This document shows positions 1 through 16,276 of a DNA stretch of 16,276 nucleotides, in pieces. The notes under the pieces were generated by a model. The model had not been told where the DNA came from. It was given only the letters and a program-made list of their open reading frames with translations, and ran no database searches. Position numbers and translations under genes: made by a program. Position 1 is the stretch's first letter. The number at the start of each line of letters is the position of its first letter. Source of the stretch: Candidatus Auribacterota bacterium (GTDB taxonomy: Bacteria; Auribacterota; UBA6266); the NCBI GenBank assembly GCA_023136205.1, contig JAGLRQ010000107.1, forward strand, positions 1-16,276, in the 5' to 3' direction.

Positions 1-698
1 ACGTTTCTAAAAAGAGGTTTTATCTTACCCGTGAAGACAACCCTTGTCAAGTCAGAACTGTACCCTTTATAAACAACACCCATATCGATGAGAATAATAT
101 CGTTTTCAAGAACTTTTCTTTTACTTTCATAATAATGGGGCATTGCTGAATTCGGGCCGCTTGCGACAATAACAGGGAAAGACGCGTTTTCAGCCTGTGA
201 CCTGTATATCAGGTTATCAATCCTGTTTTTAATTTCTTTTTCCGTTAGACCGGGTTTAATAAACCTGCGGATGTGGAGGAAAATGTCATCTGCTATTGTA
301 ACTGCTTTTCTTATTTTTTTAATTTCTTCTGCTGTTTTAACCGCCCTGAACTCTGCAATAATATCCCCGCAATCCTTGAAGCACAAGTTTTTTATTTTCT
401 TCCGGTAAGCTGACAGAGACGAACAGGTAAGATTTTTTCCGTTGTAACCAAGTGTTGCCCTTTTTAAATTTTTACACAGGAGTGAGATTGTTCCTGAAAC
501 ATCATCTGTTTCAAGGATTTTAAAGCCCTTTATATTCCTTCGCGCAATTAATGTATATCTGGAATCTGTAATAAAGAACGGTTTTGAGTAAAGCTTATGG
601 TATAGAATTACGGCACTTGTGCCGTTGAACCCGCATAGATACCTGATATTAGTCAGACTGGAAACAAGAAACGCACTTGTTTCGGAAATTTTTAGCAT
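1..698 (-). CDS. pepP: Xaa-Pro aminopeptidase / M24B metallopeptidase, partial (C-terminus lies beyond the left edge)
   Basis: Not in the supplied track because it runs off the edge. My own minus-strand translation from the ATG at 698-696 stays open to base 1: MLKISETSAFLVSSLTNIRYLCGFNGTSAVILY...AEFRAVKTAEEIKKIRKAVTIADDIF...ASFPVIVASGPNSAMPHYYESKRKVLENDIILIDMGVVYKGYSSDLTRVVFTG. This shows a creatinase/prolidase-type N-domain followed by the M24 pita-bread core pattern (H..., D-x-G-x-x-Y-x-G-Y-x-S-D-x-T-R). The start lies 17 nt after the aroQ stop. aroQ-pepP adjacency is common. Confidence 0.85.
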   Translation of the reverse strand, partial: MLKISETSAFLVSSLTNIRYLCGFNGTSAVILYHKLYSKPFFITDSRYTLIARRNIKGFKILETDDVSGTISLLCKNLKRATLGYNGKNLTCSSLSAYRKKIKNLCFKDCGDIIAEFRAVKTAEEIKKIRKAVTIADDIFLHIRRFIKPGLTEKEIKNRIDNLIYRSQAENASFPVIVASGPNSAMPHYYESKRKVLENDIILIDMGVVYKGYSSDLTRVVFTGKIKPLFRN

Positions 699-715
699 TT
701 TTTTTATGGTGGGCT

Positions 716-1150
716 TCACTTTTTAATAATATTTATCGCGGCAAGAAGTCCAAGGATATAGCTATACTCCCCGAAACCTGAAATCTGGCCTTCAACTGAG
801 GGAGCTGTGATGGATTTATGCCGAAACTCTTCTCTTTTATAAATATTTGACATATGAACTTCCACTACAGGTATCCTGATCGAGCTGATTGCATCTCTGA
901 TAGCGACACTTGTATGGGTATAAGCCGCGGGATTAATCACGATGGCATCATATTCTTTTTCCGATTTCCCTATTATATCAACTATTTCACCTTCATGGTT
1001 TGACTGAAAAAATGACAGGCCAACATTTTTCCCCCTGGCAGTTTCTTCCATTCTTTTAGTTATATCTTTCAGCGTTTTTTCCCCGTAGATATCTACTTCT
1101 CTTTGTCCGAGAAGATTCAGGTTAGGCCCGTTTATTACAAGAATTTTCAT
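716..1150 (-). CDS. aroQ: 3-dehydroquinate dehydratase, type II
   Basis: The 144-aa ORF carries the hallmark type II DHQase motifs: MKILVINGPNLNLLGQRE..IYG, HEGEIVD, INPAAYTHTSVAIRDA and VEVHMSNIYKREEFRHKS. It has an ATG start and an AGGAGAG Shine-Dalgarno 7 nt upstream. Confidence 0.95.
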   Translation of the reverse strand: MKILVINGPNLNLLGQREVDIYGEKTLKDITKRMEETARGKNVGLSFFQSNHEGEIVDIIGKSEKEYDAIVINPAAYTHTSVAIRDAISSIRIPVVEVHMSNIYKREEFRHKSITAPSVEGQISGFGEYSYILGLLAAINIIKK

Positions 1151-1157
1151 TTATAAG

Positions 1158-1164
1158 CTCTCCT
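1158..1164 (-). promoter_or_regulatory. Shine-Dalgarno sequence of aroQ (AGGAGAG, 7-nt spacer to ATG)
   Basis: Minus strand reads ...ATATAGGAGAGCTTATAAATG. Confidence 0.6.
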
Positions 1165-1252
1165 ATATCTTGTATTTAGTATGTAGTATTTCATATTTTA
1201 TCTGCGCTAATCCCCTGCTGTTTCGCTTCGCAAAACAAATCGCTGAGGACTA

Positions 1253-3259
1253 TCAGTCTGCGTCCAATTTTTTCTTTTTTAATTTTACTCTTCTAATTGC
1301 CTCTCTTGCCTCTTTGAGTTCCGGATCAAATTCAAGCGCTTTATTGAGGTTAGCAATGGCTTCCTGACTTCTGTCCAGCATATCATAAAACAGTCCCAGT
1401 TGTAGATAATAAAATCCCTTGGTCGGATAGGCTTCAACGGCTATTTTAAGTTCTTTTTCAATCTCATACATCGGGATGGACTGCCCCGCGTCTGCATATT
1501 GATTTTTGATACCCTTTGCCACCAGAAAATGATAAAAAGCCATGCTTGGTTCAAGTTCTGAAGCTTTTTTGTAGCTTACCAGTGCTTTCTCGTAATTGCG
1601 CAGCTCTTCAGAAACAACACCTCTGAAATGCCACAACTGAGGGTTGTCTGGGTCTACATCAATAGCCCTGTTAATAAGTTTTAAACCGGCAGATAATTTC
1701 TTTTCCTGTACCACTGCAATTGCCTGTTTATATAACTCATCCGAGTCTACAATAGCTTTTGAATATCTATAGCACAGGGCAAAGCCTATAAGGATCGCGA
1801 GGATTATTACTCCGCTCACATACCATTTTCTCTCTACGGGGAACCTGACAGACGGAACTTTTGATTTCGCGAGGACTATAGCCGCGAAGAAAAACATTGT
1901 TGAGCTGATACCCGGGACGTAGAGAACAAATTCGAAAAAGCTGTGTACAAGGATTCCAAAGAACCCAATAAAAATTGCAAACAAAAGTATGTTTTCACCA
2001 TCACGCAGATCAGAGCACTTTATCTTCCTTGCCATAGATAAAAATATTGTTAATATACAGCCTATATAAAAACAAAACCCCAGAAGGCCTGTTTCCGCGA
2101 GAATCTGGAGATAATCGTTGTGAGCCATCTGGGTTTCCTCGCCGTGAGGCAGTTTGTAACGTGGGTAAATTGACCCGAAGGCTCCCGGGCCAACCCCGAT
2201 CAACGGGCTTTCTTCGAGCATTTTTATTCCGGGAGGCCAGTAATTGATTCTGGCAAGAGCGGAAGCAACTGGTGATCCTAATTTATCACCTTTAACTTTA
2301 TAGAGGCCAATTGAAAAAAACGTAATCAAAAGGATAATAATTATCGCGGAAACAAAAGAAAATAGTTTTATTTTCTTGTCTTTCAAAAACAACAGCGAGA
2401 ATGATATGAAAAACAGAATTACCGCTGCAAAAGCAACTAATCCCCCTTTTGAAAATGTCAGGTAGAAGGAAACCAGGCATAGCAGCGGTGAAAGGATAAT
2501 ACCTCCCAAGGCAGGAAAGAATAACAGTGTGTTTTTTACAAAAATTAAAAATCCAAGGGTAATGCAGGCAGAAACACAAATAAAATAACAGTACCGGGCA
2601 ATCTTGCGGTTTATGATTGATTTGAGGGTCAATGAAATAATAACAGGGATGGTCAATACAAAGAAACCCGCCAGCGCGTTGGGGTAGATAAAAAATGAAA
2701 AGGTTCTGTTACCCGAGAGCCTTGAAATTAATTTTTCGGGCATGTGTTTTATTTGCCCGGTTTCTACAAGCCAATCTCTTGTTTCCTGAAGCCCAAAGAA
2801 ATACTGATAGAGCCCATAGAGGGCTACGAGAACTGCCGCGGTCATAAGGACATAGAGGATGTTCTCGATTTTTCTTTCACCTCTGAAAAAATTTGAAATC
2901 GAAAGGTAAATTATTATCCATGTTACAAGGTTTACCATCAGCGATCTTGCTTTCCAAGGTACTATAGAAAAATGTTTTGATATAAGCGCGATGACTAGAA
3001 ATCCAAGAAGGAATATAGCGGGAAGGTCAACATAGAAATCTGTTTTTCTGGTTATTGATTCAAAAAATACCAGAATCAATATACAAAACCATCCTATAAA
3101 AAAGGCGTGATTATACCGCGGAAAGACTATGCCGCTTACAAACAACCTTAAAAATACCGCCGCGGCAATTGAAATACAAATTGAAAGAGCCAAAACTTTC
3201 TGAGGCCGAAAGGTAAAGAAAGGATTGATTCTTTTTTCGGTAATTTTATTGCTTACCAT
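1253..3259 (-). CDS. O-antigen ligase/polymerase family (Wzy_C-type) polytopic membrane protein with a C-terminal TPR repeat domain
   Basis: The 668-aa ORF has about 500 aa of strongly hydrophobic multi-helix sequence containing the Wzy_C/O-antigen-ligase signature region (GEETQMAHNDYLQILAETGLLGF). The last ~150 aa are soluble, helical and TPR-like (LINRAIDVDPDNPQLWHFRGVV..., YEKALVSYKKASELEPS, QEAIANLNKALEFDPELKEA). ATG start, overlapping the upstream gene stop by 14 nt. Confidence 0.8.
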   Translation of the reverse strand: MVSNKITEKRINPFFTFRPQKVLALSICISIAAAVFLRLFVSGIVFPRYNHAFFIGWFCILILVFFESITRKTDFYVDLPAIFLLGFLVIALISKHFSIVPWKARSLMVNLVTWIIIYLSISNFFRGERKIENILYVLMTAAVLVALYGLYQYFFGLQETRDWLVETGQIKHMPEKLISRLSGNRTFSFFIYPNALAGFFVLTIPVIISLTLKSIINRKIARYCYFICVSACITLGFLIFVKNTLLFFPALGGIILSPLLCLVSFYLTFSKGGLVAFAAVILFFISFSLLFLKDKKIKLFSFVSAIIIILLITFFSIGLYKVKGDKLGSPVASALARINYWPPGIKMLEESPLIGVGPGAFGSIYPRYKLPHGEETQMAHNDYLQILAETGLLGFCFYIGCILTIFLSMARKIKCSDLRDGENILLFAIFIGFFGILVHSFFEFVLYVPGISSTMFFFAAIVLAKSKVPSVRFPVERKWYVSGVIILAILIGFALCYRYSKAIVDSDELYKQAIAVVQEKKLSAGLKLINRAIDVDPDNPQLWHFRGVVSEELRNYEKALVSYKKASELEPSMAFYHFLVAKGIKNQYADAGQSIPMYEIEKELKIAVEAYPTKGFYYLQLGLFYDMLDRSQEAIANLNKALEFDPELKEAREAIRRVKLKKKKLDAD

Positions 3260-4343
3260 TTTTTGAACCGAAATATTCCAGGATTGATATTATAAAAAGA
3301 ATTAGAATAACCTGAGACATTATCAAAAGTGCCGAACAAGTATTGTCAACTTCCGGAAGAACTATGGCCGCTATACCCGTACAAAGGCAGATTATATAAA
3401 TAAACGTTATCGCTGTTTTGTACGAAAGCCCGAGGCGCATCAGCCTGTGAGAAAAGTGGTTCTTATCAGGTGCGAAAATTGAAACGCCTTTATAAATGCG
3501 TACAGCGATAACAGTTACCGTATCGTATAACGGAACCGCCAGGACAAGAATCGGCATTAGTATTGGAAACAAGGTATAGCTTTCCTGAGTGTAATATGTG
3601 CCCAGGATTGTAAAGACAGCCAGCATATATCCGAGAAACATGCTTCCCGCGTCACCCATGAATATTGAAGCAGGGTTAAAATTAAACATGAGAAACCCCA
3701 GAATACATCCCGCGAATATAAACAGCATTGATGAAATAAAGAGCTCCCCCATCCTTACTGAAATAAATATGAACGTTAAAGCTGAAACCAATGCAACCCC
3801 GGCGGATAAACCATCAGCATTGTCAAGAAGATTAAATGAGTTTATAACCAGTAAAAACCAGAAGTATGTAACGAGATATGAATAAAAAGTATTTCCTAGA
3901 AAAAGGCTGAGCCTTACCCCAAATATAATCGGCACGGAAGCAGCTACCAGCTGCAGGATTATTTTGGAAGAAGGTTTTATATTATATTTGTCATCATACA
4001 AACCTCCGATAACAATTATAAGGCCTCCCCCAAAGATAGCCGCAAGCAGTTTGAGTTTTTTTAACATTCCCGGCAGGTTCGGGATAAAATAAGTGTTTAA
4101 AGAAGGTATAAAGTTGAACTTCGAGTTTAACAGGACAAAGATTATACAACCCGCGGTAACAAGCAAAACTGACAGGTAAATTGCTGCGCCGCCCATAAGA
4201 GGGACTTTATCCGTGCTGAGTTTTTTAAAAGAATGAATATTGACAAACCCGGTTTTTATAGCAAGGGATCTAAACAATAAAGTAAGTATGATGCAGGTAA
4301 ATCCTGAAACCGCAAACAGCGCAAACAGTTCTTTTATCGGCAT
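3246..4343 (-). CDS. Polyprenyl-phosphate HexNAc-1-phosphate transferase, MraY/WecA family (initiating enzyme)
   Basis: The 365-aa polytopic ORF has the family motifs NSFNLLDNADGLSAG and FMGDAGSMFLGY. ATG start, overlapping the upstream GT stop by 10 nt (ATGCCGATAA). Confidence 0.88.
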   Translation of the reverse strand: MPIKELFALFAVSGFTCIILTLLFRSLAIKTGFVNIHSFKKLSTDKVPLMGGAAIYLSVLLVTAGCIIFVLLNSKFNFIPSLNTYFIPNLPGMLKKLKLLAAIFGGGLIIVIGGLYDDKYNIKPSSKIILQLVAASVPIIFGVRLSLFLGNTFYSYLVTYFWFLLVINSFNLLDNADGLSAGVALVSALTFIFISVRMGELFISSMLFIFAGCILGFLMFNFNPASIFMGDAGSMFLGYMLAVFTILGTYYTQESYTLFPILMPILVLAVPLYDTVTVIAVRIYKGVSIFAPDKNHFSHRLMRLGLSYKTAITFIYIICLCTGIAAIVLPEVDNTCSALLIMSQVILILFIISILEYFGSKNGKQ

Positions 4344-5497
4344 AATAACTCCATATACAGTTTCTCTATCTCGTCCACCATGTAATTCTTATCAAAATAA
4401 GGTATAATTAATTTTTTCCCCTGTTCTCCCATTCTTTCACATAATTTTTTATTTTCAACAAGTTTTTCAAGCGCCTTATATAAACCATTTGAATCTTTCG
4501 GCCGAACAAGGCAGCCGGTTATATCATTTTTCACAACTTCCCGCGCGCCATCCACATCAAACGACACGATAGGTTTTTTACACGCGAATGACTGCGGTAT
4601 AACTTTTGCCAGGCCTTCCCTTAACGAAACATGCACAATAATATCAGAGGCTCTTATGTACTCAGGTATTTTAGATGGATGTACAAGCCCCGCAAAAATT
4701 ATTTTATCCGAAATGCCTAAGTTCTTCGCCATGTTAACAAACCTATCTTTCAAAATTCCGTCTCCGACCAGCAGAAGGTAGATATTTTTGTGCCGTCTTG
4801 CCAGTTTTGCAAAAGCGTCAAATACATATTCGTGCCCTTTAAGCTCAAAGAGCCTTGCTATTTTGCATATTACGACAGCATCTATGGGTATTTTCAAAGC
4901 CTTACGTAACTGTTTTTCACCGCCTCCGGAGTTAAAATAACTATTAAGATCAAACCCGCTTCTGATAACCCTGTATAGTTCCCTTTTTGAGACTCTGGCT
5001 GCAATGGATTGTTCGGTCATTGCCTCCGAAACAGTAATAAAGTAATCAGTAAACCTGTCAACAAATCTCTCACAGGATTTATAGAAAATATTGGATAATT
5101 TGCTTTGATATTTATGATATGGAAGCCCGTGTATAGTATGAATGACAAGTCTTACCCCTGCAAGTTTTGCGGCAATTCTTGCGAGTATTCCCGCTTTTGA
5201 ACTGTGAGTATGAACTATATCGTATTTTTCACGCTTGAAAATATTCAGAAGCTTAAAGAAAGCGATTGTATCCAGAAAAGGGTTTACAGCCCTTTTCATT
5301 GAAGGTATAAGAATGATTTTTACCGAGGCTTTTTCAGCTTCAACAAACAGCGTTCCTTCAGGGCCCACAGCAGGCCCGGTAATAAGGGTAACATCGTATC
5401 CTTTTTTCATTAATCCTTCGACTGTGTAAAAGGTATTCTCCTGCGCCCCGCCTATGATAAGGCGCGTGATTATATGAGCTATTTTAGGTTTTTTCAA
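4334..5497 (-). CDS. Glycosyltransferase, GT-B fold / family 4-like
   Basis: The N-terminus KIAHIITRLIIGGAQENT is a typical GT4 Gly-rich start. The C-terminal half has HVSLREGLAKVIPQSFACKKPIVSFDVDGAREVV (E-x7-E-like region). The track start at 5512 is TTG with no SD. A second in-frame TTG at 5497 is preceded by GAGGAA with a 7-nt spacer and gives MKKPKIAHII, so 5497 is preferred. 5512 remains possible. Confidence 0.85.
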   Translation of the reverse strand: MKKPKIAHIITRLIIGGAQENTFYTVEGLMKKGYDVTLITGPAVGPEGTLFVEAEKASVKIILIPSMKRAVNPFLDTIAFFKLLNIFKREKYDIVHTHSSKAGILARIAAKLAGVRLVIHTIHGLPYHKYQSKLSNIFYKSCERFVDRFTDYFITVSEAMTEQSIAARVSKRELYRVIRSGFDLNSYFNSGGGEKQLRKALKIPIDAVVICKIARLFELKGHEYVFDAFAKLARRHKNIYLLLVGDGILKDRFVNMAKNLGISDKIIFAGLVHPSKIPEYIRASDIIVHVSLREGLAKVIPQSFACKKPIVSFDVDGAREVVKNDITGCLVRPKDSNGLYKALEKLVENKKLCERMGEQGKKLIIPYFDKNYMVDEIEKLYMELLCR

Positions 5498-6593
5498 GAT
5501 AGAGTTCCTCAAATTTTGGGATAATGTGCTCCCATGAGAACCTTTTTACCCTCTCCCCCGCGAGATCTCCCATAGCAGTTCTTTCAGCAGGATCCCTGCA
5601 CAACCTGATGATTTTATCTGCCAGTTCTATGGAGTTTGCGGGTTCAATCAGGAATCCGGTTTCACTATCATCTACAATATCACTCAAGCCATCAATCTTT
5701 GATGCTATAACCGGTTTCCCGCATGCCATCGCTTCAGCAGCAGAAATCCCAAATCCTTCCCACAGAGAAGGCATTACAAAAATATCCAGGCTGTGTAAAA
5801 AGGATTTAACATTCTTAACAAAACCCAGGAGGCGGAACTTCTTTTCAAGCCCTGCGTTTTTAATCCTCAACTGAAGTTTCTTTTTGAGCGGGCCCGACCC
5901 CCCTACCAGGAAAACCGCGTCAGGGCGATATTTTATCACCTCGCATGCGGCCTCAATTAGGTATTTATGGCCTTTTTGTTCGTGAAGGTGCCCCAATGCG
6001 CCAATTACAATATTGCTTTCAACACCCAGTAATTTTCTGTAATTTGCTGTGTTTATGCCGGAATCAGTAAAACTTTCAACTTTAACACAATTATGGATCA
6101 CATCGACTTTACCTTCCGCGAGCCCAATATTTTCCACAAGAAATTCTTTAACACCGTTTGAAGCCGCTACAATTTTAGTAGTGCTGCCGGAGAGTGTTTT
6201 CTCCAATAATCTGTAAGGCAGTCTTTGTTTAAAATCATATCTGTTTTGCTCTGAGGATATTATTTTTCCAGCATTAGCCAATTTCGCAGCAATCCTGCCA
6301 TAAATCTGGGAAAGGACAAGATGGGTATGCACAACATCGGGTTTTGAGGTTTCAATAATATTTTTTAATTTAGGAAGCACTGATATATCATAATTGCCCT
6401 TCATGGCAATTACATAACATTTGAGCCCCTTTCTCTCTGCAAAATCCTTTAGATAGGTGCTCTTATCTTTTCTTCTATCAAGGAATATTACTTCCTGTTT
6501 AAACTTATCTCTGTTAATTTTATCAATGAGGAGTTCCAGCAACTTTTCATTACCGCCAATATCAAAACTGTTTATAACATGAATAATCTTCAT
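5484..6593 (-). CDS. Glycosyltransferase, GT4 family
   Basis: The 369-aa ORF with an ATG start begins MKIIHVINSFDIGGNEK and contains MPSLWEGFGISAAEAMACGKPVIASKIDGLSDIV, the canonical GT4 donor-binding region. Its first ~55 codons are duplicated as a relic at 8187-8356. Confidence 0.9.
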   Translation of the reverse strand: MKIIHVINSFDIGGNEKLLELLIDKINRDKFKQEVIFLDRRKDKSTYLKDFAERKGLKCYVIAMKGNYDISVLPKLKNIIETSKPDVVHTHLVLSQIYGRIAAKLANAGKIISSEQNRYDFKQRLPYRLLEKTLSGSTTKIVAASNGVKEFLVENIGLAEGKVDVIHNCVKVESFTDSGINTANYRKLLGVESNIVIGALGHLHEQKGHKYLIEAACEVIKYRPDAVFLVGGSGPLKKKLQLRIKNAGLEKKFRLLGFVKNVKSFLHSLDIFVMPSLWEGFGISAAEAMACGKPVIASKIDGLSDIVDDSETGFLIEPANSIELADKIIRLCRDPAERTAMGDLAGERVKRFSWEHIIPKFEELYLEKT

Positions 6594-6596
6594 AAT
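6431..6596. repeat. Direct repeat, copy A (functional GT 5' end); partner is 8187-8356
   Basis: 6478-6596 aligns without gaps to 8238-8356 (offset exactly 1760 nt), with 100 of 119 positions identical by hand count. This includes a perfect 33-mer (6478-6510 = 8238-8270). After a 10-versus-12-nt unalignable patch, 6431-6467 aligns to 8189-8225 with 29 of 37 identical. Confidence 0.9.
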
Positions 6597-6602
6597 TTTT
6601 CT

Positions 6603-6782
6603 TTATTTTCTTGGCAACAATTCAATGCCTGTGATGTCTGCCTTCTTTTCCAGCTTGATCTGTTCTCCAAGAGCTCCAGCGCTACAACCTACATCAAAAA
6701 TCTTTTCCGCATTGGTAGGGAGTAAATTTCGAATATCGCTTCGCTTGCCAACACAAGATGGATTGAAATCATAAAGTTCCAT
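6603..6782 (-). pseudogene. Truncated class I SAM-dependent methyltransferase (N-terminal 59 codons only)
   Basis: MELYDFNPSCVGKRSDIRNLLPTNAEKIFDVGCSAGALGEQIKLEKKADITGIELLPRK* aligns residue for residue with the N-terminus of the intact 219-aa methyltransferase at 11641-12300 (MDIRDLNPSYIGQRPDIERLVSPNAKTILDIGCSTGTLGAAIKARTGARVFGIEL...). About 26 of 55 positions are identical. The fragment keeps SAM motif I (DVGCSAG) but stops just after it, 9 nt before the next gene's ATG. The track start at 6791 is GTG. The ATG at 6782 matches the homologue's start. Confidence 0.75.
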
Positions 6783-6787
6783 AATTC

Positions 6788-8185
6788 TCACTTCGTTTTA
6801 AAAAATTTCTTTTTCGAATATCGCAGTAATGCTTCTCTCTTATTTTCTACTTTACTAAATTTTGAAACTAATTTTTGTATTTTGTGAATATATAGCAGTG
6901 GCTTGATTCTAAACCTCCTTTTGTTTTTCAGGCTAATATCCCGAGATCTAGCGAACATTTTCTTATATTTCCTAATGCGTTCTATCAGCTTATCATCTAT
7001 CCAGGGAACTGTAGGAACATCCAGATAGAACTCACCCCAATCTTTAAGTGAGCCAGGTTCCTCAAAGCCCATCTTTAGCGATAAATCAAATAAAGGAGTG
7101 CCGGGATAGGGCGTATAGAGAAAGAGCAGTAATTCACTTGCGGGAATCTTTTCCCTAAAAGTATCTATCAGTTTGAAGGTTTCTTCAATATCTTCCTGTG
7201 TTTCGCCTGGGACCCCCACCATCATTGAAAAAGAAGGTATTATATTAAACCTATGGCAGAGATTGCCAAATTCCAATATCATCTCCGGCGTAATTCCTTT
7301 ATTTAATCTATCCAATGTTGCTTGAGCGCCGGATTCAGCCCCTACCAAGAGTCGTTTACAGCCTGACCTATCCAGCATTTCCCACTCTTCTGTCTCAAGA
7401 TTACAAAGTACATCTATCCTTGTATCTGAAGACCAATTTATTTTAATATTACTTCTAAGCAATTGGTTGGCAAATTCTAATGCCCTCTTCTTTCCTATAA
7501 AAAAGTTGTCATCGTCAAAATGCACACCATCAATAAAATATCTTCCCACACTATAATCAATAAGATCTACAACGCTTTCAATGCACCATCCGCTGTATTT
7601 CCTGCCATAAACCGAATTAATGGCACAAAACTTGCAGCCAAACGGACAACCCTGTTGTGTATATAAAGAGATTGTGCGCGGGCTCACATAAGGAATAATA
7701 TATCTTTCCATATTTCTAATCAGATCAAAGTTGTAAACAGGAAACTTGCTTTTGTCTATATATTCATAAGCAATTATATCGTCTGTCTTTTTCCCATTTT
7801 TAAGGCTTTCGACTATATCACAAAAAGCCTGTTCACCCTGTCCCACAATAACTTTATCTACATACTCATTCTCTAATGTCTGTTCAGGCTTTAAAGAAGG
7901 ATGCCACCCGCCCCATATAAGAGGAACACCGGGATTGATAGATCGAATCACTTGGGCTACTTCTAAAGAAGACTTTATATATGTGCCTGTAATAGTGCTA
8001 ATCCCCACACAGATTGCATTTTTGATTTCATCCCTATGCTTCCTCCATACCAAACCTGGCGTAGCTTCGTCTAAGATTAAAACCTCGTTATCCAAATTTG
8101 TGGCAAGAGACAGTAGTGCATGAGGCAAGCGTCCGTGTGAACCGCCGGCTCTTATCAAAATTACCTTTTTCCCCTTCTTAAACAT
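6788..8185 (-). CDS. B12-binding domain-containing radical SAM protein (class B radical SAM, candidate methylase)
   Basis: The CxxxCxxC cluster QQGCPFGCKFCAINSVYG has its Cys codons at 7646-7648, 7634-7636 and 7625-7627. The N-terminal flavodoxin-like cobalamin-binding-type domain reads KVILIRAGG...GISTITGTYIKSSLEVAQVIRSINPGVPLIWGGWHPS. The downstream radical SAM core includes LLVGAESGAQATLDRLNKG. The track start at 8200 is TTG. The ATG at 8185 is preceded by GGAGAGG plus a 4-nt spacer and gives MFKKGKKVILI, a 465-aa protein. Confidence 0.88.
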   Translation of the reverse strand: MFKKGKKVILIRAGGSHGRLPHALLSLATNLDNEVLILDEATPGLVWRKHRDEIKNAICVGISTITGTYIKSSLEVAQVIRSINPGVPLIWGGWHPSLKPEQTLENEYVDKVIVGQGEQAFCDIVESLKNGKKTDDIIAYEYIDKSKFPVYNFDLIRNMERYIIPYVSPRTISLYTQQGCPFGCKFCAINSVYGRKYSGWCIESVVDLIDYSVGRYFIDGVHFDDDNFFIGKKRALEFANQLLRSNIKINWSSDTRIDVLCNLETEEWEMLDRSGCKRLLVGAESGAQATLDRLNKGITPEMILEFGNLCHRFNIIPSFSMMVGVPGETQEDIEETFKLIDTFREKIPASELLLFLYTPYPGTPLFDLSLKMGFEEPGSLKDWGEFYLDVPTVPWIDDKLIERIRKYKKMFARSRDISLKNKRRFRIKPLLYIHKIQKLVSKFSKVENKREALLRYSKKKFFKTK

Positions 8186-8186
8186 T

Positions 8187-8356
8187 TTTCCTCTCCGCAA
8201 AATCTTTCAGGGAAGTGCGCTTATCCTATAACCCCGGTCAAGGAATATTACTTCCTGTTTAAACTTATCTTTGTTGATTTTATCGACAAGCAACTCCAGC
8301 AGTTTTTCATTGCCGCCTACATCAAAACTGTTTATAATGTGAACGATCTTTATTAT
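8187..8356 (-). pseudogene. Relic of a glycosyltransferase 5' end (homologue of 5484-6593), start codon lost and frameshifted
   Basis: Minus-strand translation gives IKIVHIINSFDVGGNEKLLELLVDKINKDKFKQEVIFLD, against MKIIHVINSFDIGGNEKLLELLIDKINRDKFKQEVIFLD in the intact gene. ATG has become ATA at 8353-8351, and the nearest upstream in-frame codon run begins after a TAG with no canonical start. A 2-nt length difference at 8226-8237 breaks the frame, and a TGA follows. Homology ends 1-2 nt before the radical SAM ATG. Confidence 0.85.
8190..8196 (-). promoter_or_regulatory. Shine-Dalgarno of the radical SAM gene (GGAGAGG)
   Basis: Minus strand reads GCGGAGAGGAAAAATG. This sequence sits inside the glycosyltransferase relic and is homologous to coding codons (GCAGAGAGAAAGGGG, A-E-R-K-G) of the intact copy. 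Confidence 0.6.
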
Positions 8357-8425
8357 GGTAAAACACCGAATGCATTTCTAACCTAGCTCCAGTTTTATAT
8401 GTACATAGACTTTTATGAACCAAAA

Positions 8426-9694
8426 TCACATAAAAACAAAATCTTTTTTAACAAACACAAGATAGTAAGAAGTAAAATACGAGCCTATCCAGTATACTCC
8501 ATTAGCAATTACAGCTCCTGCTATTCCGAAATAATATATTAGTGGTATCATAAGAAGTATAGCTATTGTGGGAAAAAGAACATTTAATAAATATAATCCC
8601 TTGATATAGTTCTGAGATTCAAACAATGTTTTAATAATCTGTGATGGAAATCCAAAGGACATAAGCAGTATCAATAGTTGAGAATAAACTATCGAACTTT
8701 CATATGTTTTTGAAAAAAACAACAGAATAAGGGGCCTTGCAACTAAAAAACCGATTACTCCAAGTGAAACAGATAGAATCGTTATCAACAAAAATTTATT
8801 TTTCACTTTTAAAAAAGCTTTCTCTCTTTCTAATTCCGAGAGCTTTGGGAAAATCAAACTCGTTTCTATCATAAGCAGGCTCTTTAACTGATTTTGAAAG
8901 GAATATGCTACCTGGTAAATAGCTAAAGCCTGAAAACCAAGAAAAGCGCCCACTATTATTTTATCAAGATTAACAAACAATATGCCTATTGCTCCTATAA
9001 AGGTAATGTGCTTAGAGAATTTAACGCCATCTCTTATATCATGTTTTTTTTCGGGAAGTTTTCTCAAAATAGAAGACGTAATAACTAAATTAAAAATAAC
9101 ATGGGCTAATAACGCTGCCAAAATTATAATTGGCAAAGAAGCCTTTCTAAAGATACTAATCAATATAAAGACAATTGATAATATTGATATAGCAGAAATT
9201 AAAGAAGCATAAATCCCAAATTTCTTGTTCCCAATATAGAATGCTGTCCAGAGATTATATCCGCAATACGGGACAAAAAATATTCCAGCGATCACAAATG
9301 AAGAAGACAGGATGGGTTGGCTCGCAATAAAATAATAATATAAAGCAACAATAAAACAACCAGCCATTCCCAAAAAAGAATATTTAACTTTTACAAAACT
9401 TAGCCGTCTAAAGGAACCGATATTCCCAATTGCAATTGAATTAACGGTAGCTATTTTTAAACCGGGAAGGCTTGCCATGGTTAAAATTGCCAATACCGAC
9501 ATAATAAATGCAAACTGGCCAAAAATGTTCTCTGTGGAAAAACGGGCGAAAGCAATATTTTGGGTCAGTTTTGCAAAAGAATTAACAAACAAAGGAAGCA
9601 ACATAAGCAGCGTGTTTTTAAAAAAATACCTTACATTGACCTTTGTTAATCTTTCAAGCAAATCTAATATTGAATTTATTGGATTTCTTAACAT
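8426..9694 (-). CDS. Polysaccharide/O-unit flippase, Wzx-like (MOP superfamily)
   Basis: The 422-aa ORF is very hydrophobic, with roughly 12 predicted helices by eye, short Lys/Arg-rich loops and a low-GC gene. Its size and its position in a GT/Wzy_C cluster are typical of Wzx. ATG start with GAAGGA 5 nt upstream. The call rests on architecture rather than a sharp motif. Confidence 0.7.
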   Translation of the reverse strand: MLRNPINSILDLLERLTKVNVRYFFKNTLLMLLPLFVNSFAKLTQNIAFARFSTENIFGQFAFIMSVLAILTMASLPGLKIATVNSIAIGNIGSFRRLSFVKVKYSFLGMAGCFIVALYYYFIASQPILSSSFVIAGIFFVPYCGYNLWTAFYIGNKKFGIYASLISAISILSIVFILISIFRKASLPIIILAALLAHVIFNLVITSSILRKLPEKKHDIRDGVKFSKHITFIGAIGILFVNLDKIIVGAFLGFQALAIYQVAYSFQNQLKSLLMIETSLIFPKLSELEREKAFLKVKNKFLLITILSVSLGVIGFLVARPLILLFFSKTYESSIVYSQLLILLMSFGFPSQIIKTLFESQNYIKGLYLLNVLFPTIAILLMIPLIYYFGIAGAVIANGVYWIGSYFTSYYLVFVKKDFVFM

Positions 9695-9742
9695 TTAATC
9701 CTTCTCTAAAACTAAAAATAAACCTTGTATTTTTTCCGTTTT

Positions 9743-10429
9743 TTATTTTTTTACAGCCTTCCATAATAAATCTCTTGCAAATAACCGATTTAGTGTATGA
9801 GGTGTTTTTTCTGATACTTTCAGGAATGGCAATATTCTTCCCGTTAAAGGTAATATTTGAACATCAACAAAAAAATTTGATAATAAATTTTCCAATTGTA
9901 AATAAGAAAACATTTTCATGTGAGTTGGATCTGGCTCAAATTCTTTCCCAAACAAAAATTTTATTCTATTAAAAACACGAAAGCTATTTGGTACAGAACC
10001 TAAAAACAAACCACCATGCTTAAGTACTTCAAAAATTTTTTTTATAAAAGGCTCTGCATAATAAATATGTTCAACTATTTCACAGGCTACAATCACATCA
10101 AGTGATTCTCTCTCAAAAGGAAACTCTGTATTTAAATCAAGCCAAAGAGTTTTTATTCCAAGTTTTTCCCTGGCTATATTCAATGCAGCACTATCAACAT
10201 CCGCTCCGATTACCTCATTCCCATTAACAAAATATTTTGTTAATTCCCCATCCCTACAGCCCAAATCTAAAACTTTTTTCCCCTTCCCAATCCAATCTTT
10301 TAAATAATTACCTCGTTTGCCTTGACAATACAGGTAACCATATCTTTTTCTGGCTAAATGATGCGATTTGTAGATTTTTTCAAGAATAGACTTTGAAGAA
10401 TCTTTATCGTTATTAACAGATATACCCAT
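9743..10429 (-). CDS. Class I SAM-dependent methyltransferase
   Basis: The 228-aa ORF has motif I VLDLGCRDGELT, post-I VIGADVD, and DVIVACEIVEHI...LKHGGLFLGSVPN, typical of the Methyltransf_11/23-like fold. ATG start. Confidence 0.85.
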   Translation of the reverse strand: MGISVNNDKDSSKSILEKIYKSHHLARKRYGYLYCQGKRGNYLKDWIGKGKKVLDLGCRDGELTKYFVNGNEVIGADVDSAALNIAREKLGIKTLWLDLNTEFPFERESLDVIVACEIVEHIYYAEPFIKKIFEVLKHGGLFLGSVPNSFRVFNRIKFLFGKEFEPDPTHMKMFSYLQLENLLSNFFVDVQILPLTGRILPFLKVSEKTPHTLNRLFARDLLWKAVKK

Positions 10430-10452
10430 TCTATGTTCTTTCCTATAAATAC

Positions 10453-11523
10453 CTAAATTATCTCCTCAAGGAGACCCTTAAGATGCCTTCCTAAGGCCTG
10501 AGGTGTAAACTTCTTTATGGCCAATCGATAACCATTCTCGGCTATCCTCTCCCTTAGCTCTTGATTATTCTTCAGCTCTAATATGGCTGAGGCCAAAGAC
10601 TCAGGATCAGCTCTCCGACACAATTTCAGATGTTCGTTGTCTACAAAGATTTCTCTAATAGCTGGAGTATCAGCGGTGATGACAGGTTTTTTCGCCGCTA
10701 AGGCTTGGTAGACCTTGTTAGGAATCACCTTCTCTGTCTTTTTTGTCCTGCCAAATATCCCTAAACAGAGGTCCGCTTTAGCCACCAGAGAGGGGAGAAC
10801 TGCTGGAGGGACGGAATCCTGAAATATGAGGTTGTCTACCTTTATCCTGCTGGCCAAATCCCGCATCTCTTGCCAGGTTTGTCCCTTGCCCACCAACTCG
10901 AACCTAATCTTGGATTCTTTTTCTAATATTTTGGCGGCCTCAATAATATATTGAATCCCATGCAAAGGGATGTAGGTTCCCCAGAAGAGGACTAAAAAAC
11001 GGGAGTTTGCTCTCTTGAGGGGTTGGGGGAAGAAGAGGTCATTATCTGCCCCGACAAAGACTTTCCTTAACTTGGTTATTTTAATCTTAAACTCACGACA
11101 GAAATAATCCAGATGCTGATTGGTATCAGCCAGAACAAGGTCAGCTAAATTCATTGAAAATTTATCAAACCAGAAGTAGTACCTTGCTCTAAGAGAATTC
11201 TCCTTGACTAATCTTCTATCAAAGACATTTGTGTCATAAAGAGAGGTAAAGGGGTCAAAGACCAATGGTTTCTTGGTAAGCTTAGCCAAAAGATAGGCCA
11301 AAGGGAGGATTGTTTGATTACATTCTGCCACGATGACGGCTTTACATCCTCTAAAAACCCTCAGATACTGCCTGAGTAATAGAGGATATCTCTGGTAACT
11401 CTTCAGTTGAGGAGAAAGGTTGCACTCGACCACCTCAACATCATTGGCTTGTAGGCCTTTCCTCAAAACGGCATTACGGGCATACTCTCTATTATATGCT
11501 CCAAAGTAACAGATTTTCATCAT
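10453..11523 (-). CDS. Glycosyltransferase, GT-B fold (GT4-like)
   Basis: The 356-aa ORF starts MMKICYFGAYN. Its C-terminal half has FRLVLFWGTYIPLHG..., GIFGRTKKTEKVIPNKVYQALAAKKPVITADTPAIREIF, a GT-B C-domain pattern. Sampled lines of this gene are noticeably more GC-rich than those of neighbouring genes. Confidence 0.75.
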   Translation of the reverse strand: MMKICYFGAYNREYARNAVLRKGLQANDVEVVECNLSPQLKSYQRYPLLLRQYLRVFRGCKAVIVAECNQTILPLAYLLAKLTKKPLVFDPFTSLYDTNVFDRRLVKENSLRARYYFWFDKFSMNLADLVLADTNQHLDYFCREFKIKITKLRKVFVGADNDLFFPQPLKRANSRFLVLFWGTYIPLHGIQYIIEAAKILEKESKIRFELVGKGQTWQEMRDLASRIKVDNLIFQDSVPPAVLPSLVAKADLCLGIFGRTKKTEKVIPNKVYQALAAKKPVITADTPAIREIFVDNEHLKLCRRADPESLASAILELKNNQELRERIAENGYRLAIKKFTPQALGRHLKGLLEEII

Positions 11524-11640
11524 CCCTTACATTCCCTAATGAAACTCGAATTTTCCAAATCGCAAAATTTACAGTCGATTCCCCAGGAAAAAACTATGCG
11601 CATAATCTCTCCCTCGCTATGCAGCGCAACGGAATAGCGG

Positions 11641-12300
11641 TTAGGTACAACGCTGTGCTCGTATCAAGTACTGAAAAGCAAGAAAGTTCCTCATGCCGGG
11701 AATCGCAAGAAACTTGGCAAAACGATTCAGTCTATGGCCTCTTTCTATAAACCTGTAATTTGTTTTGATTGTGTCGATTGATAAATCTGCGCTATCAAAT
11801 AATTCCATTATGTTTCTTTTAGTAAAGAATCTGAGGTGTGTTTGGTCGTGAATGCCCCTCTCCCTGTATGGCCAATTCCCTTTAAACACCAGATTAAAAA
11901 TCGTATCTAAATGTCTAACGTTAGGGATTGATGCGATTATTGTGCCGTCGTTTTCCAGATATCTCGCTGCTCCCCTCAAGACAGACCAAGGATCGATTAA
12001 GTGCTCTAATATATCAGCGAAAATTATTGTATCAAATCTAAAATCCTGCATTTTACCTTGAAGTATTATTTCTGCAGCATCACCCACGAAAACCTTGTCC
12101 AACCGATCAGAGGCAACATGCGCCATTTCTTGTGACAGTTCAATTCCAAAAACTCGTGCGCCCGTTCTTGCTTTGATTGCCGCGCCCAGGGTGCCAGTAC
12201 TACATCCTATATCAAGGATGGTTTTGGCATTGGGGGAAACCAACCTTTCTATGTCTGGTCGTTGTCCTATATAGGACGGATTAAGGTCTCTTATATCCAT
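11641..12300 (-). CDS. Class I SAM-dependent methyltransferase
   Basis: The 219-aa ORF has motif I ILDIGCSTGTLG, post-I VFGIELS, then FDTIIFADILEHL and NDGTIIASIPN. It is the intact homologue of the stump at 6603-6782. Confidence 0.88.
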   Translation of the reverse strand: MDIRDLNPSYIGQRPDIERLVSPNAKTILDIGCSTGTLGAAIKARTGARVFGIELSQEMAHVASDRLDKVFVGDAAEIILQGKMQDFRFDTIIFADILEHLIDPWSVLRGAARYLENDGTIIASIPNVRHLDTIFNLVFKGNWPYRERGIHDQTHLRFFTKRNIMELFDSADLSIDTIKTNYRFIERGHRLNRFAKFLAIPGMRNFLAFQYLIRAQRCT

Positions 12301-12312
12301 ATCATTCCTCTT

Positions 12313-13401
12313 TCACTTTTTAATGCAACTCTCGAGCGCAGTATATATATTGGAAACACAATTTTCCAGTTTATGCTGCTCAACAACAATATTTCTCAAA
12401 TGCAATCCTAAAGCATTTTTTTTGTCAGCCGGCATCGCAGAAAACTTCTCTATCCTTTGGACAAGTTTATGAGGACTGTTTTCATTGATGAAACAATCCT
12501 CAAGGTTACTCATAAGTAACTTTTTTAAAGCCCCGTTATTAGTAATTATCAGGAGCCCACTGCTCATTGCTTCCAACACAGCTTTATCATAACTACCGAC
12601 GTCAGTCAAGCTTACCAAGACATCACATGATTTATATAATGAACCAATTTTCTGATGCAATACAGGTCCAATAAACTTTACCATATCAGTAAGACCGCAA
12701 TTTTTTATCATTCTTTTTAATCTCTCACAATAATCACGATGTTTGTTTATTAAAACATCCCCAGCAATTATACATTTGAATTTAACTTTTCCACTGTCCT
12801 TAAGTTTTTTTAATGCTTCTATAAGAACCTCAAGTCTTTTAACCGGAGCTATTCTACCTGCTGAAAGTATTTTTATAATTTTATCCTGCTTGCCATAATT
12901 TTTTAGATCAAATGTGGCAGTGTCTATCCCGTGTCCGGCAACAACTATTTTCTTTGATTTTAACGGGAAACTCTGTCTTGATGCTGTAATTATCTTATTA
13001 CAAATCAAGTGTGCTATTCTCAATTTCAAAGTTGCTTTACAGTGAATATACCATATAACAATGGGAATCTTGAATAACACTTTAAAAGGGACCAAAACCA
13101 GTGCATATACAGGGCACATGTGAATAAATATGCAGTCTATTCCCTTTTCTTTTTTTATTTTAAAAACAGTTGAATATAATATCTTAAGGATGTTTGTTTT
13201 TCCTGGATTATTTTTTTTCTTAATTTCAATAATTTTTACATTTTCCGGCAAATCATAATTTCCTGCTCTCAGTGTACACACGAAAACCTCTTTAAAAAAA
13301 GATGAAAATTCCGCTAACCATTTCGTAAAAAATCCAAGGAGCCAGTCATTTTCGTCTACAACCTGAGTAACGATTAAAATATTTAATTTTTTGTCTTTCA
13401 T
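12313..13401 (-). CDS. Glycosyltransferase, GT-B fold (GT4-like)
   Basis: The 362-aa ORF has N-terminal LNILIVTQVVDENDWLLGF. The C-domain reads ILSAGRIAPVKRLEVLIEA...CDVLVSLTDVGSYDKAVLEAMSSGLLIITNN. The gene is very AT-rich. Confidence 0.75.
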   Translation of the reverse strand: MKDKKLNILIVTQVVDENDWLLGFFTKWLAEFSSFFKEVFVCTLRAGNYDLPENVKIIEIKKKNNPGKTNILKILYSTVFKIKKEKGIDCIFIHMCPVYALVLVPFKVLFKIPIVIWYIHCKATLKLRIAHLICNKIITASRQSFPLKSKKIVVAGHGIDTATFDLKNYGKQDKIIKILSAGRIAPVKRLEVLIEALKKLKDSGKVKFKCIIAGDVLINKHRDYCERLKRMIKNCGLTDMVKFIGPVLHQKIGSLYKSCDVLVSLTDVGSYDKAVLEAMSSGLLIITNNGALKKLLMSNLEDCFINENSPHKLVQRIEKFSAMPADKKNALGLHLRNIVVEQHKLENCVSNIYTALESCIKK

Positions 13402-13410
13402 CGAGCACTC

Positions 13411-14547
13411 TTATCCGATTTTTTGACCGAGTGTTTTTTCAATCATTTGAAAATAATTTTCTGCGAATTTTATTGTGCTGAAATTTTCTTCAACAAAGTT
13501 TTTTCCGTTTAAACCCATAATTTTCATTTTTCCCTTATTGTTGAAAGCAAATAATATTTTTTCTGCCAATGATTCTGGATCTGCAGGCTGAATTAGCAGC
13601 CCTGTTTCTCCATCAATAATTAATTCGGGAATTCCTCCGACACAACTTGCTATTGCGGGCCTTGAACAGGCAAATGCTTCAAGGATTACCCTCGGAAGGC
13701 CTTCAGTGATTGAAGGTAATATCAATGCAATTGAACTATGTATAAAATCTGCAATTTCTCCCTGAGTTTTGTTGCCCAAAAATATAAACTCATTATCTAA
13801 TTTAAGGGTTTTTACTCGATTAGCAAACATTCCTTTCTCTTCGCCACTGCCGATTATTAAAACCTCCAGTTTGGTATGTTTTTCTTTTGCAATGGAAACA
13901 GCGTCAATTAATGTATCAATTCCCTTCAAATGGATAATCTGTCCTACAAAGATAAAACGGTTTTGTATAATTTCTTTTTCCTTAGAATCAAAAAATATTT
14001 CGATGTCAGTATATGTCGGAAAAATAAATTTAGGTTTTTGAAATTCGCCAACAACTTTTTCAATTTCTTTTGAAATAATTCTAATTGCATCACTTTTGTT
14101 TAATGCCCATTTCCCCATCAAATCAGTTATCCATTTGAATCCACTGCCAATCCTTTTATAGACAACCGGCGCTTTATCCCATTCTCCATGAATTTCAATA
14201 ATTAATTTGATTCTTGGTTGCAGTATTTTAATAAAAGTGCCGGCAATTCCCTCAAACGGAGATTGACATACAATAATAGATATATCTTTTCTTCCAACCA
14301 GCAGAATTCCCTTTAAAAAGGCATAGATTAAAAAATACGCCTGCCTGAGATAATTTGGAACTCTTGAAGAAATCAGGTAAAAATCGGCATTTTCATTAAA
14401 ATGAAGCTTCCCTTTTCCATTATGAAGGCTGATAAATGTCATATCCAGCTTTTGCGAGAGGGCCTTTACTTTTTTCGCGTTAGTTTGATTCAGGGGTTTT
14501 GAGTAACGTGCCCCGCCGATAAACAATACTTTTGTTTTTTTATCCAT
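13411..14547 (-). CDS. Glycosyltransferase, GT4 family
   Basis: The 378-aa ORF contains FIFVGQIIHLKGIDTLIDA and LPSITEGLPRVILEAFACSRPAIASCVGGIPELIIDGETGLL, the canonical GT4 E-x7-E region. Confidence 0.9.
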   Translation of the reverse strand: MDKKTKVLFIGGARYSKPLNQTNAKKVKALSQKLDMTFISLHNGKGKLHFNENADFYLISSRVPNYLRQAYFLIYAFLKGILLVGRKDISIIVCQSPFEGIAGTFIKILQPRIKLIIEIHGEWDKAPVVYKRIGSGFKWITDLMGKWALNKSDAIRIISKEIEKVVGEFQKPKFIFPTYTDIEIFFDSKEKEIIQNRFIFVGQIIHLKGIDTLIDAVSIAKEKHTKLEVLIIGSGEEKGMFANRVKTLKLDNEFIFLGNKTQGEIADFIHSSIALILPSITEGLPRVILEAFACSRPAIASCVGGIPELIIDGETGLLIQPADPESLAEKILFAFNNKGKMKIMGLNGKNFVEENFSTIKFAENYFQMIEKTLGQKIG

Positions 14548-14555
14548 CTCTAAAA

Positions 14556-15671: not shown

Positions 15672-16276
15672 AAATATTTTTCTATATATTCCCCCAGCGC
15701 TTCTTTCCAATGGCGTGTTCTGCGTCCGGTTTCCCGTTCATATTTTTCAAGCGAAAAAACTGAATAGCGGGGCCTGGCAGCCGGCCTTTTATATTCTTCG
15801 GATGAAGCAGGGTTAACACTAATCTTTCTTCCCAGCAGATTAAATATCGCAATAGCAAACTCATACCATGAACATTCCCCGCTGTTGCAGATATTAACAA
15901 CGCCTTTAAGCTGTTTTTCAACCGCGTTCAAAATAGCTTCCGCGAGATCATATGTATAAGTAGGCTTTCCTTTTTGATCACTCACTACTTTTAAAACAGA
16001 CTCATTTTGGGGGATGTCGGCTAATGTAGAAACAAAATTTTTACCGGAGGGGCCGTAAAGCCATGAAGTTCTGACTATCAGGCTGTCTTTTGCATGTGCC
16101 ATCACATTTTTTTCACCCTTGAGCTTGCTTAAACCGTACACACTAATCGGTGAAGGGGTATCTGTTTCGGTGTAGGGAGTGCCCTTTTGCCCATCAAATA
16201 TATAATCGGTGCTTATATGGATTACCCTGGCACCATATTTAGATGAGTTTACCGCGATGTTGCGGGGCCCCTCCGC
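15668..16276 (-). CDS. rmlD: dTDP-4-dehydrorhamnose reductase, partial (N-terminus beyond the right edge)
   Basis: The frame is open from base 16276: AEGPRNIAVNSSKYGARVIHISTDYIFDGQKGTPYTETDTPSPISVYGLSKLKGE... It has the RmlD signatures STDYxFDG and the catalytic YGxSKxxGE, and continues ...RTSWLYG...GKNFV...DQKGKPTYTYDLA. The M at 16141 in the track is an internal GTG (Val), not the start. Confidence 0.92.
   Translation of the reverse strand, partial: AEGPRNIAVNSSKYGARVIHISTDYIFDGQKGTPYTETDTPSPISVYGLSKLKGEKNVMAHAKDSLIVRTSWLYGPSGKNFVSTLADIPQNESVLKVVSDQKGKPTYTYDLAEAILNAVEKQLKGVVNICNSGECSWYEFAIAIFNLLGRKISVNPASSEEYKRPAARPRYSVFSLEKYERETGRRTRHWKEALGEYIEKYL

Follow-up and report, generated by a model that had tools for sequence, protein, structure and literature searches.

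How does the dead beginning of a glycosyltransferase (GT) gene come to lie in front of a radical S-adenosylmethionine (SAM) gene, when an intact GT with a similar beginning is encoded downstream of that gene? The question is raised by contig JAGLRQ010000107.1 (positions 1 to 16,276) of a Candidatus Auribacterota bacterium (assembly GCA_023136205.1), and "the window" below denotes this whole stretch of 16,276 nucleotides (nt). Every gene of the window is encoded on the minus strand, and together the genes make up a single polysaccharide (O-antigen-like) operon. To our knowledge, Auribacterota, a candidate phylum, has neither cultured members nor studied glycans. On balance, we read the arrangement as a multi-junction recombination scar of diverged glycan loci, produced by illegitimate or homology-facilitated recombination, in which one of the two GT alleles was imported. 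The four junctions discussed (J1 to J4) and all other features are listed in Table 1.

In the interval 5000-9800, the strongest direct repeat detected by a repeat finder is 6478-6596 against 8238-8356 (119 nt, 84% identical, spacing 1760 nt), and all other repeat families are at most 33 nt long, with 73-89% identity. BLASTN recovers the same pair (E = 4e-27), and MAFFT carries the match past a 2-nt indel to about 6429/8187. The downstream copy opens the intact GT, and the upstream copy, located between the flippase gene and the radical SAM gene, is a relic. Its start codon (8351-8353) is ATA where the intact gene has ATG, and a +2 frameshift after codon 40, at about 8226-8237, leads frame 0 into a TGA; past the indel, frame 2 of the relic reads DKRTSLKDFAERK, and the intact gene has DKSTYLKDFAERK. 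The 119-nt block contains 19 mismatches, which in its coding part affect the third codon position 11 times, the first 6 times and the second once, and they cause only 6 amino acid changes, all conservative, the lost start included. An earlier note, made from the sequence alone, had described the GT 5' end as present twice in the same orientation 1760 nt apart, the upstream copy as dead, and the block as having 19 substitutions and 6 amino acid changes; every element of this description was recovered. It had also proposed the perfect 33-mer within the block as a crossover or gene conversion tract. The 33-mer is present, and its length is only modestly unusual, with a P of about 0.02 (0.016-0.022 by permutation). 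Scanning the relic for a functional element yielded no Rfam match, terminator, promoter excess or open reading frame (ORF) longer than 35 amino acids (aa).

A repeat of this kind can be created by an assembler that fuses two strain haplotypes, and this possibility, which the earlier note had asked to be excluded, deserves attention given that diverged co-occurring strains are present in the samples, single-nucleotide polymorphisms (SNPs) fall in patches, and some contigs end at the 33-mer. However, seven assemblies (L001, L002, L003, L004, L048, L049 and L092), which stem from six samples and were made with three or more pipelines, cover both repeat copies colinearly. J1 and J3 have no sequence of k-mer length in common that could mis-join two strains, and the ATA codon and the frameshift of the relic would not be expected in any functional haplotype. 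The Logan contigs L047 and L050 (k = 31) run from the upstream genes through the flippase gene and end at 8241, within the 33-mer, as would be expected of a true genomic repeat in a de Bruijn graph. An assembly artefact is thus extremely improbable. The window matches a 538-kb scaffold from an ENA metagenome assembly with 100% identity, and contigs of two NCBI metagenome-assembled genomes (MAGs) annotated as Candidatus Aureabacteria (that is, Auribacterota) with 99.8-99.9% identity.

Across the 52 codons that can be aligned between the relic and the intact GT, we counted 21 synonymous differences over 30.3 sites (pS 0.69, near saturation) and 8 non-synonymous ones over 125.7 sites (pN 0.064), so that omega, the ratio of non-synonymous to synonymous divergence, is about 0.04. 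If a dead copy had diverged beside its live counterpart, omega would be at least 0.5, which is rejected with P = 1.3e-5, as is neutrality with P = 1e-9. Compared with four outgroup orthologues, the relic carries the ancestral residue at I6, K28 and G41 and the live gene carries it at positions 12, 23 and 45, and all amino acid changes specific to the relic are conservative. Because pS is near saturation, pN is low and the ancestral residues are split between the copies, the divergence accrued almost entirely in two functional genes, followed by late inactivation. The relic thus derives from a second, once-functional copy of the GT, nearly all of the divergence arose while both copies worked, and the inactivation of the relic is recent. 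This is hardly reconcilable with a GT 5' end that was duplicated locally, perhaps as a target duplication upon insertion of the radical SAM segment, and then decayed neutrally. Such an origin would account for same-orientation direct repeats flanking the insert, but, apart from the low omega, the relic has accumulated only two disabling lesions while its synonymous sites came close to saturation, and it holds ancestral residues that the live copy lost, so that we consider this scenario not credible. The codon-aware comparison therefore bears out two claims of the earlier note, namely, that the relic diverged as a functional gene under purifying selection and that it is not a decayed local duplication. 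A further claim, that the relic is a piece of a different lineage's locus, names the likelier source, with a former tandem paralogue in the same genome as the alternative.

The gene between the repeat copies encodes an intact radical SAM protein with a PF02310 domain (residues 61-129) and a PF04055 domain (residues 181-345), in which the CxxxCxxC motif is present as GCPFGCKFC; having an N-terminal cobalamin-binding domain and a radical SAM core, it belongs to class B (B12-binding). Against the NCBIfam equivalogs, it scores under every cut-off. About 28 database proteins are 62-80% identical to it at the amino acid level, and the window from 8180 to 6619 matches contig L012 with 79% nucleotide identity over 1.56 kb, whereas the nearest non-self homologues of the intact GT (hereafter, core GT) show only 49-54% amino acid identity. 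Among the 14 contigs with usable flanks, half show the radical SAM gene followed by a MetW-like methyltransferase of 218-224 aa and then a GT of about 388 aa, and in 6 the radical SAM gene is preceded by a flippase of about 500 aa that is unrelated to the flippase of the window. In L012, the radical SAM protein and the methyltransferase are naturally fused (P0122, 697 aa). Loci with the radical SAM gene and a full-length methyltransferase, which the earlier note had suggested looking for, were thus found (L012-L014, L052-L054 and L062). The window lacks the GT and the flippase of this module and has of it only the radical SAM gene and a methyltransferase that was very likely deleted internally, that is, a fragment rather than the full module. 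Given that relatives of the radical SAM protein are far closer (62-80%) than those of the core GT (at most 54%) and have conserved neighbours, the insert is a fragment of a horizontally spread, widely distributed glycan-modification module. On plasmids, the best match to the module is 33% identical. The earlier note had proposed recombination between related glycan loci; the recombination stands, but the source of the insert is a foreign, widely distributed module rather than a related locus.

A scan of the GTDB species representatives with the radical SAM protein returned, as its sole relative, a Stahlbacteria MAG protein at 63% identity. In the scan with exact 8-mers of this protein, the source species, expected at about 100%, was not among the returns; its species representative in GTDB may be another MAG without this contig or gene. 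Compared with all close relatives, the window gene misses 8-9 Lys-rich codons after codon 5 (8150-8185), which looks like an in-frame deletion between AAGAAG repeats.

Downstream of the radical SAM gene, the 59-codon ORF is 54-58% identical to the module methyltransferases and 49% identical to the methyltransferase encoded at 11641-12300 in the window, and the homology breaks after codon 55 (6618). The sequence from 6622 to 6597, however, finds its best local matches at positions 640-668 of about 669 nt in the methyltransferase genes of L013, L014, L054 and L062; for L014, the score, which includes the adjoining start of the next gene, is 43 against a shuffled null of 24.1 +/- 3.2 (maximum 34). 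Within the module, the stop codon of the methyltransferase and the ATG of the native GT overlap; this GT starts with ATGAAAATT and the core GT with ATGAAGATT, so that TTATGAARATT is common to both. Since the homology breaks after codon 55 and returns at the 3' end, the methyltransferase was very likely deleted internally, with its 3' end retained; and since this 3' end meets the ATG of the core GT and the two GTs share their start, the core GT very likely took the place of the module GT in register. The earlier note had placed two things between the repeats, an intact radical SAM gene and a methyltransferase stump; the former is there, but the latter is better described as an internal deletion that spared the last 26 nt or so. 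Likewise, both outer junctions do fall near start codons, as claimed there, but the join of the methyltransferase to the GT very likely sits on the GT start codon itself, and it is the stop of the remnant ORF that lies 9 nt before this ATG. A full-length paralogue of the module methyltransferase (55-56% identical), with no adjoining radical SAM gene, is present at 11641-12300 and could stand in for the deleted module copy.

At the other end of the insert (J1), the GT homology ends at 8187-8189. The radical SAM gene starts with ATGTTTAAGAAG (MFKK), and its relatives in L054 and L055 also begin with MFKK, so that the ATG is native to the module. The relic contributes GGAGAGG, 5 nt ahead of this ATG, which can act as a Shine-Dalgarno sequence. 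Near J1, L012 is the one module relative whose upstream sequence also contains AGAGGAAA; the others differ there, and the parents are unsampled.

Syntenic loci in four related lineages have in common with the window the next GT (GT2), the WecA-like gene, Wzy-TPR, DHQase, peptidase M24 and EF-P. Empty sites, another expectation of the earlier note, were identified in L007/L008 and L009-L011, where the flippase gene is directly followed by the GT. In L006 (1-5500), a different B12-binding radical SAM protein (22% identical) and a PMT_2 gene occupy the same boundary between flippase and GT; because this insertion is independent and different, the boundary is a recurrent insertion point. In all these relatives (L006-L011), a PMT_2-type gene separates the GT from GT2; this gene is precisely absent from the window. 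Here, the C-terminus of the GT, EKT followed by the stop, is read from the start region of GT2, TGAAAAAACCTAA, and in the relatives the C-terminus, DETV followed by the stop, overlies the PMT_2 start, ATGAAACC.

A co-occurring strain of the same species, represented by scaffold L084 from one of the same samples, carries a PMT_2 orthologue directly upstream of GT2. Between L084 (1-2042) and the window, the first 245 nt of GT2 (5252-5496) differ by 9.4%, and the next 860 nt or so, up to a scaffold gap, are identical. This divergence step within GT2 is a homologous crossover in a conserved flank and shows that diverged alleles recombine here. With the GT2 crossover on one side and, on the other, a cluster of SNPs and assembly breaks in RmlD, the scar lies within a cassette of about 10.7 kb that is exchanged between strains. 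We denote the arrangement of the window type A and that of L084 type B. In exact-protein look-ups, all contigs found with the flippase or with the first GT had the type A arrangement; the look-up with DHQase led to the type B contig L084, which ends inside PMT_2, short of the GT region. A search with the PMT_2 fragment of L084 returned one partial relative, L089, with GT2 93% identical and without the GT region. In L089 (1-2732), from an Auribacterota MAG, the order is yet another one, with PMT_2 followed by a SPASM-type radical SAM gene and then GT2.

The following sequence of events would produce the present arrangement. The ancestral order, retained in the relatives, would have been flippase, GT, PMT_2-type gene and next GT. 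A foreign module fragment would have entered upstream of one GT allele, which replaced the module's own GT at TTATGAARATT (J3). The resulting block of radical SAM gene, methyltransferase and GT would then have been joined to a second, diverged and functional GT allele behind the present flippase, with the join at J1, 1-4 nt ahead of the radical SAM ATG, truncating this allele at codon 55 and leaving a relic of 170 nt. For J1, the most likely process is homology-facilitated illegitimate recombination (HFIR), whereby DNA of a diverged relative would have paired through a homologous anchor downstream and been closed by an illegitimate joint; in enzymatic terms, presumably a RecA-dependent anchor and a microhomology joint. 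Conservation of the intact GT and of the genes behind it in the relatives and the co-occurring strain provides a homologous flank that could serve as the anchor, and the insertion is coupled to a deletion, the relic having 1.59 kb of module DNA in place of codons 56-369. Subsequently, the relic would have lost its start codon and gained one frameshift, and the methyltransferase would have lost codons ~56-212 (J2). The operon has remained translatable, with the Shine-Dalgarno sequence of the relic serving the radical SAM gene, the remnant ORF stopping shortly before the GT ATG, and no terminator added.

Several observations weigh against this scenario. It takes at least two or three separate events, and plain HFIR leaves the perfect 33-mer unexplained, so that a later gene conversion or a single crossover has to be added. 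Among 5.8 billion protein clusters, there is no GT of 54-100% identity, and a scan of the JGI metagenomes with the degenerate back-translated 33-mer gave 0 matches; the donor lineage is hypothetical because neither parent is sampled. The sequences upstream of the radical SAM gene vary among module relatives, so that no microhomology is established at J1. Finally, GC content marks neither flank as foreign (relic 0.375, radical SAM gene 0.38, GT 0.40, housekeeping genes 0.37-0.42), and neither GC nor GC3 was discriminating as a marker.

Fewer events would be needed if the two GTs had been tandem paralogues residing in the same genome, such that one insertion-deletion exchanged the 3' 940 nt of the upstream paralogue, as far as the downstream paralogue's start codon, for the fragment with the radical SAM gene and the methyltransferase, creating J1 and J3 at once. 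The signature of purifying selection fits this history equally well, and a gene conversion tract such as the 33-mer is natural between tandem copies. Yet none of the relatives L006-L011 has two copies of the GT, no assembly of the population contains a second copy with more than 54% identity, and two 85% identical GTs kept at an omega of about 0.04 are less usual than allelic divergence between lineages, while recombination of diverged alleles is directly seen in this population; a paralogous origin is therefore unlikely, if still a serious contender. Somewhat less likely still is a Campbell-type integration, in which a 1.76-kb donor fragment with the radical SAM gene, the methyltransferase and the first 55 codons of the donor's GT was circularised (J1) and entered by a single RecA-dependent crossover in the 170-nt GT homology at the 33-mer, its one long perfect stretch, duplicating the GT homology around the insert and leaving both copies chimeric. 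The layout of homology, insert and homology, with 170-nt repeats whose period, 1760 nt, is the length of the putative circle, is what this route predicts, as is a 33-mer longer than expected by chance (P 0.016-0.022), and incoming linear DNA is documented to circularise and then undergo a single crossover (PMC3240628). However, homology that spans only 170 nt, with 84% identity, makes a very poor substrate, the donor would have to carry J3 already, and a later conversion tract or chance would account for the 33-mer equally well.

The precision with which both outer junctions respect gene boundaries is cassette-like and could point to a mobile element since lost, such as an insertion sequence, a transposon, an integron cassette or a phage. 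Nevertheless, no transposase or integrase domain was detected in any ORF of the window or within 10 kb on either side, and the segment is not flanked by significant inverted repeats, attC-like structures or short target duplications; the domain and repeat searches of the window agree in this respect with the earlier note, which had seen no transposase, integrase or inverted repeats. The feature interval contains no terminator or Rfam element. Moreover, relatives of the module reside in ordinary glycan loci, with nothing above 33% identity on plasmids, which makes the mobile element a very remote prospect. The recombination scar between diverged lineages is, on balance, the reading that we retain. 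A reversible deletion switch between the repeats was also considered and rejected, since the GT would acquire the ATA start of the relic through a crossover at the 33-mer.

Three of the junctions are gene-precise and coincide with starts of the type Shine-Dalgarno-ATG-AAR, namely, J1 (radical SAM gene), J3 (core GT) and J4 (GT2), and at two of these the displaced and retained genes share the start sequence (TTATGAARATT at J3, ATGAAA..CC at J4). One could speculate, with considerable doubt, that A-rich translation-initiation regions are recurrent sites of microhomology that allow recombinase-free, in-register swapping of whole genes in AT-rich glycan operons. Selection acting on random joints explains these junctions equally well, and they come from one locus.

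The mosaicism of tailed phages at gene boundaries, attributed either to illegitimate recombination followed by selection or to short homologies at the boundaries, resembles the present locus in that J1, J3 and J4 fall at gene starts, although here the setting is a chromosomal glycan operon. HFIR itself is known from natural transformation of Streptococcus pneumoniae, Acinetobacter baylyi and Pseudomonas stutzeri (PMC3240628), and the scar shares with it foreign DNA next to a homologous anchor, deletion of resident DNA, a joint without extended homology and the lack of a recombinase gene, the difference being that here the process is read from its product alone. Gene remnants at recombination junctions are familiar from O-antigen clusters, such as the tyv remnant in the Abe module of Yersinia pseudotuberculosis, and so are insertions that have recognisable junctions but neither homology nor mobile elements, such as that of ascE/ascF (PMC5399914). 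As in such O-antigen and capsule loci, a truncated displaced gene marks the splice, crossovers occur in conserved flanks and GC content is mosaic; unlike in these, the remnant is the second copy of a gene that is still intact 1.76 kb away, which results in a diverged direct repeat, and the host belongs to a candidate phylum without studied glycans. HFIR-type displacement has been proposed also for arrays of type VI secretion system (T6SS) and Rhs genes (PMC5361080). Sequential displacement in arrays of T6SS effector-immunity, Rhs and contact-dependent inhibition (CDI) orphan modules (PMC5361080) likewise involves a shared stretch, displacement of the resident remainder and orphan fragments in the same orientation, but in those arrays, displaced 3' ends and immunity genes are kept on the downstream side, where they can be functional, whereas here a dead 5' end is kept upstream.

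The locus is thus a clean new example, in an unstudied phylum and with an unusual diverged direct repeat, of a type of event that is ordinary for such clusters. With regard to mechanism, it adds an example and establishes no principle, the start-codon junctions being the sole feature that possibly points to something more general. Its value lies in being a dated, readable record of how a surface polysaccharide locus was rebuilt in a candidate phylum, covering the horizontal acquisition of a modification gene, the displacement of a resident allele and cassette polymorphism among co-occurring strains. The uncharacterised and widespread module of B12-binding radical SAM protein, methyltransferase and GT is possibly worth biochemical study.

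Table 1. Features of the window, with the module loci used for comparison (window positions unless a contig is named)
Feature	Coordinates	Strand	Remarks
Dead 5' relic of second GT copy	8187-8356	minus	3 nt of leader and ~55 codons; truncated at 8187
Downstream repeat copy	6429-6596	minus	First ~55 codons of intact GT with leader
Perfect 33-mer	8238-8270 = 6478-6510	minus
B12-binding radical SAM protein	6788-8185	minus	Intact, 465 aa, uncharacterised subfamily; Pfam PF02310 and PF04055
59-codon ORF	6603-6782	minus	Codons 1-55 (6618-6782) match the N-terminus of the 220-aa MetW-like methyltransferase of the module
Retained methyltransferase 3' end (likely)	6597-6622	minus	+1 frame reads IVAKKIKKN; C-terminal consensus [IV]VAKK
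GT4-family glycosyltransferase (core GT)	5484-6593	minus	Intact, 369 aa; Pfam PF00534/PF13439
J1	8186-8189	minus	GT homology ends 1-4 nt before the radical SAM start codon (8183-8185)
J2	6618-6622	minus	Likely internal out-of-frame deletion of methyltransferase codons ~56-212; AATTG overlap
J3	6585-6597	minus	Methyltransferase 3' end meets core GT start codon
J4	5484-5500	minus	GT stop overlaps GT2 start; PMT_2-type gene missing
Right-hand homologous crossover interval, type A vs type B (L084)	5193-5251	minus
Probable left edge of strain-variable cassette, RmlD 3' end	15851-16064	minus	14 SNPs/187 nt; four assemblies break
Module loci	L012:287-5023; L014:4886-9623; L013:3977-7242; L052-L054; L062
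RmlD (partial)		minus	First in transcription order
Three GT1-type glycosyltransferases	14556-15710, 13411-14547, 12313-13401	minus
Methyltransferase	11641-12300	minus	Upstream part of operon
GT	10453-11523	minus
Methyltransferase	9743-10429	minus
Wzx-type flippase	8426-9694	minus	422 aa; Pfam PF13440/PF01943; directly upstream of relic
Second GT (GT2)	4334-5497	minus
WecA-like initiating transferase	3246-4343	minus
Wzy-TPR polymerase/ligase	1253-3259	minus	Followed by housekeeping genes

In the relatives L009 and L010, the flippase encoded right before the GT shows 43.5% identity to that of the window. GC content varies along the operon, from 0.31 in the flippase gene and the methyltransferase gene 9743-10429 and 0.32-0.34 in the GTs at 12313-14547 to 0.41-0.43 at 10453-12300 and 0.38-0.40 from the relic onward; the mosaic across 8426-14547 suggests that the operon was assembled in several events. 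In the assembly from SAMN18200495, a nonsense variant at window position 5657 (L048:4541) changes Gly313 of the intact GT to a stop and could be a genuine knock-out haplotype or an error. Strain-level assemblies differ in SNP patches with 7-10% local divergence, located at 15878-16064, 5135-5192 and 4475-4571 relative to L003 and at 3231-3239, 2602-2615 and 625-711 relative to L002, with none in 5484-8426. These patches are either short recombination tracts or the result of consensus switching between co-occurring strains.

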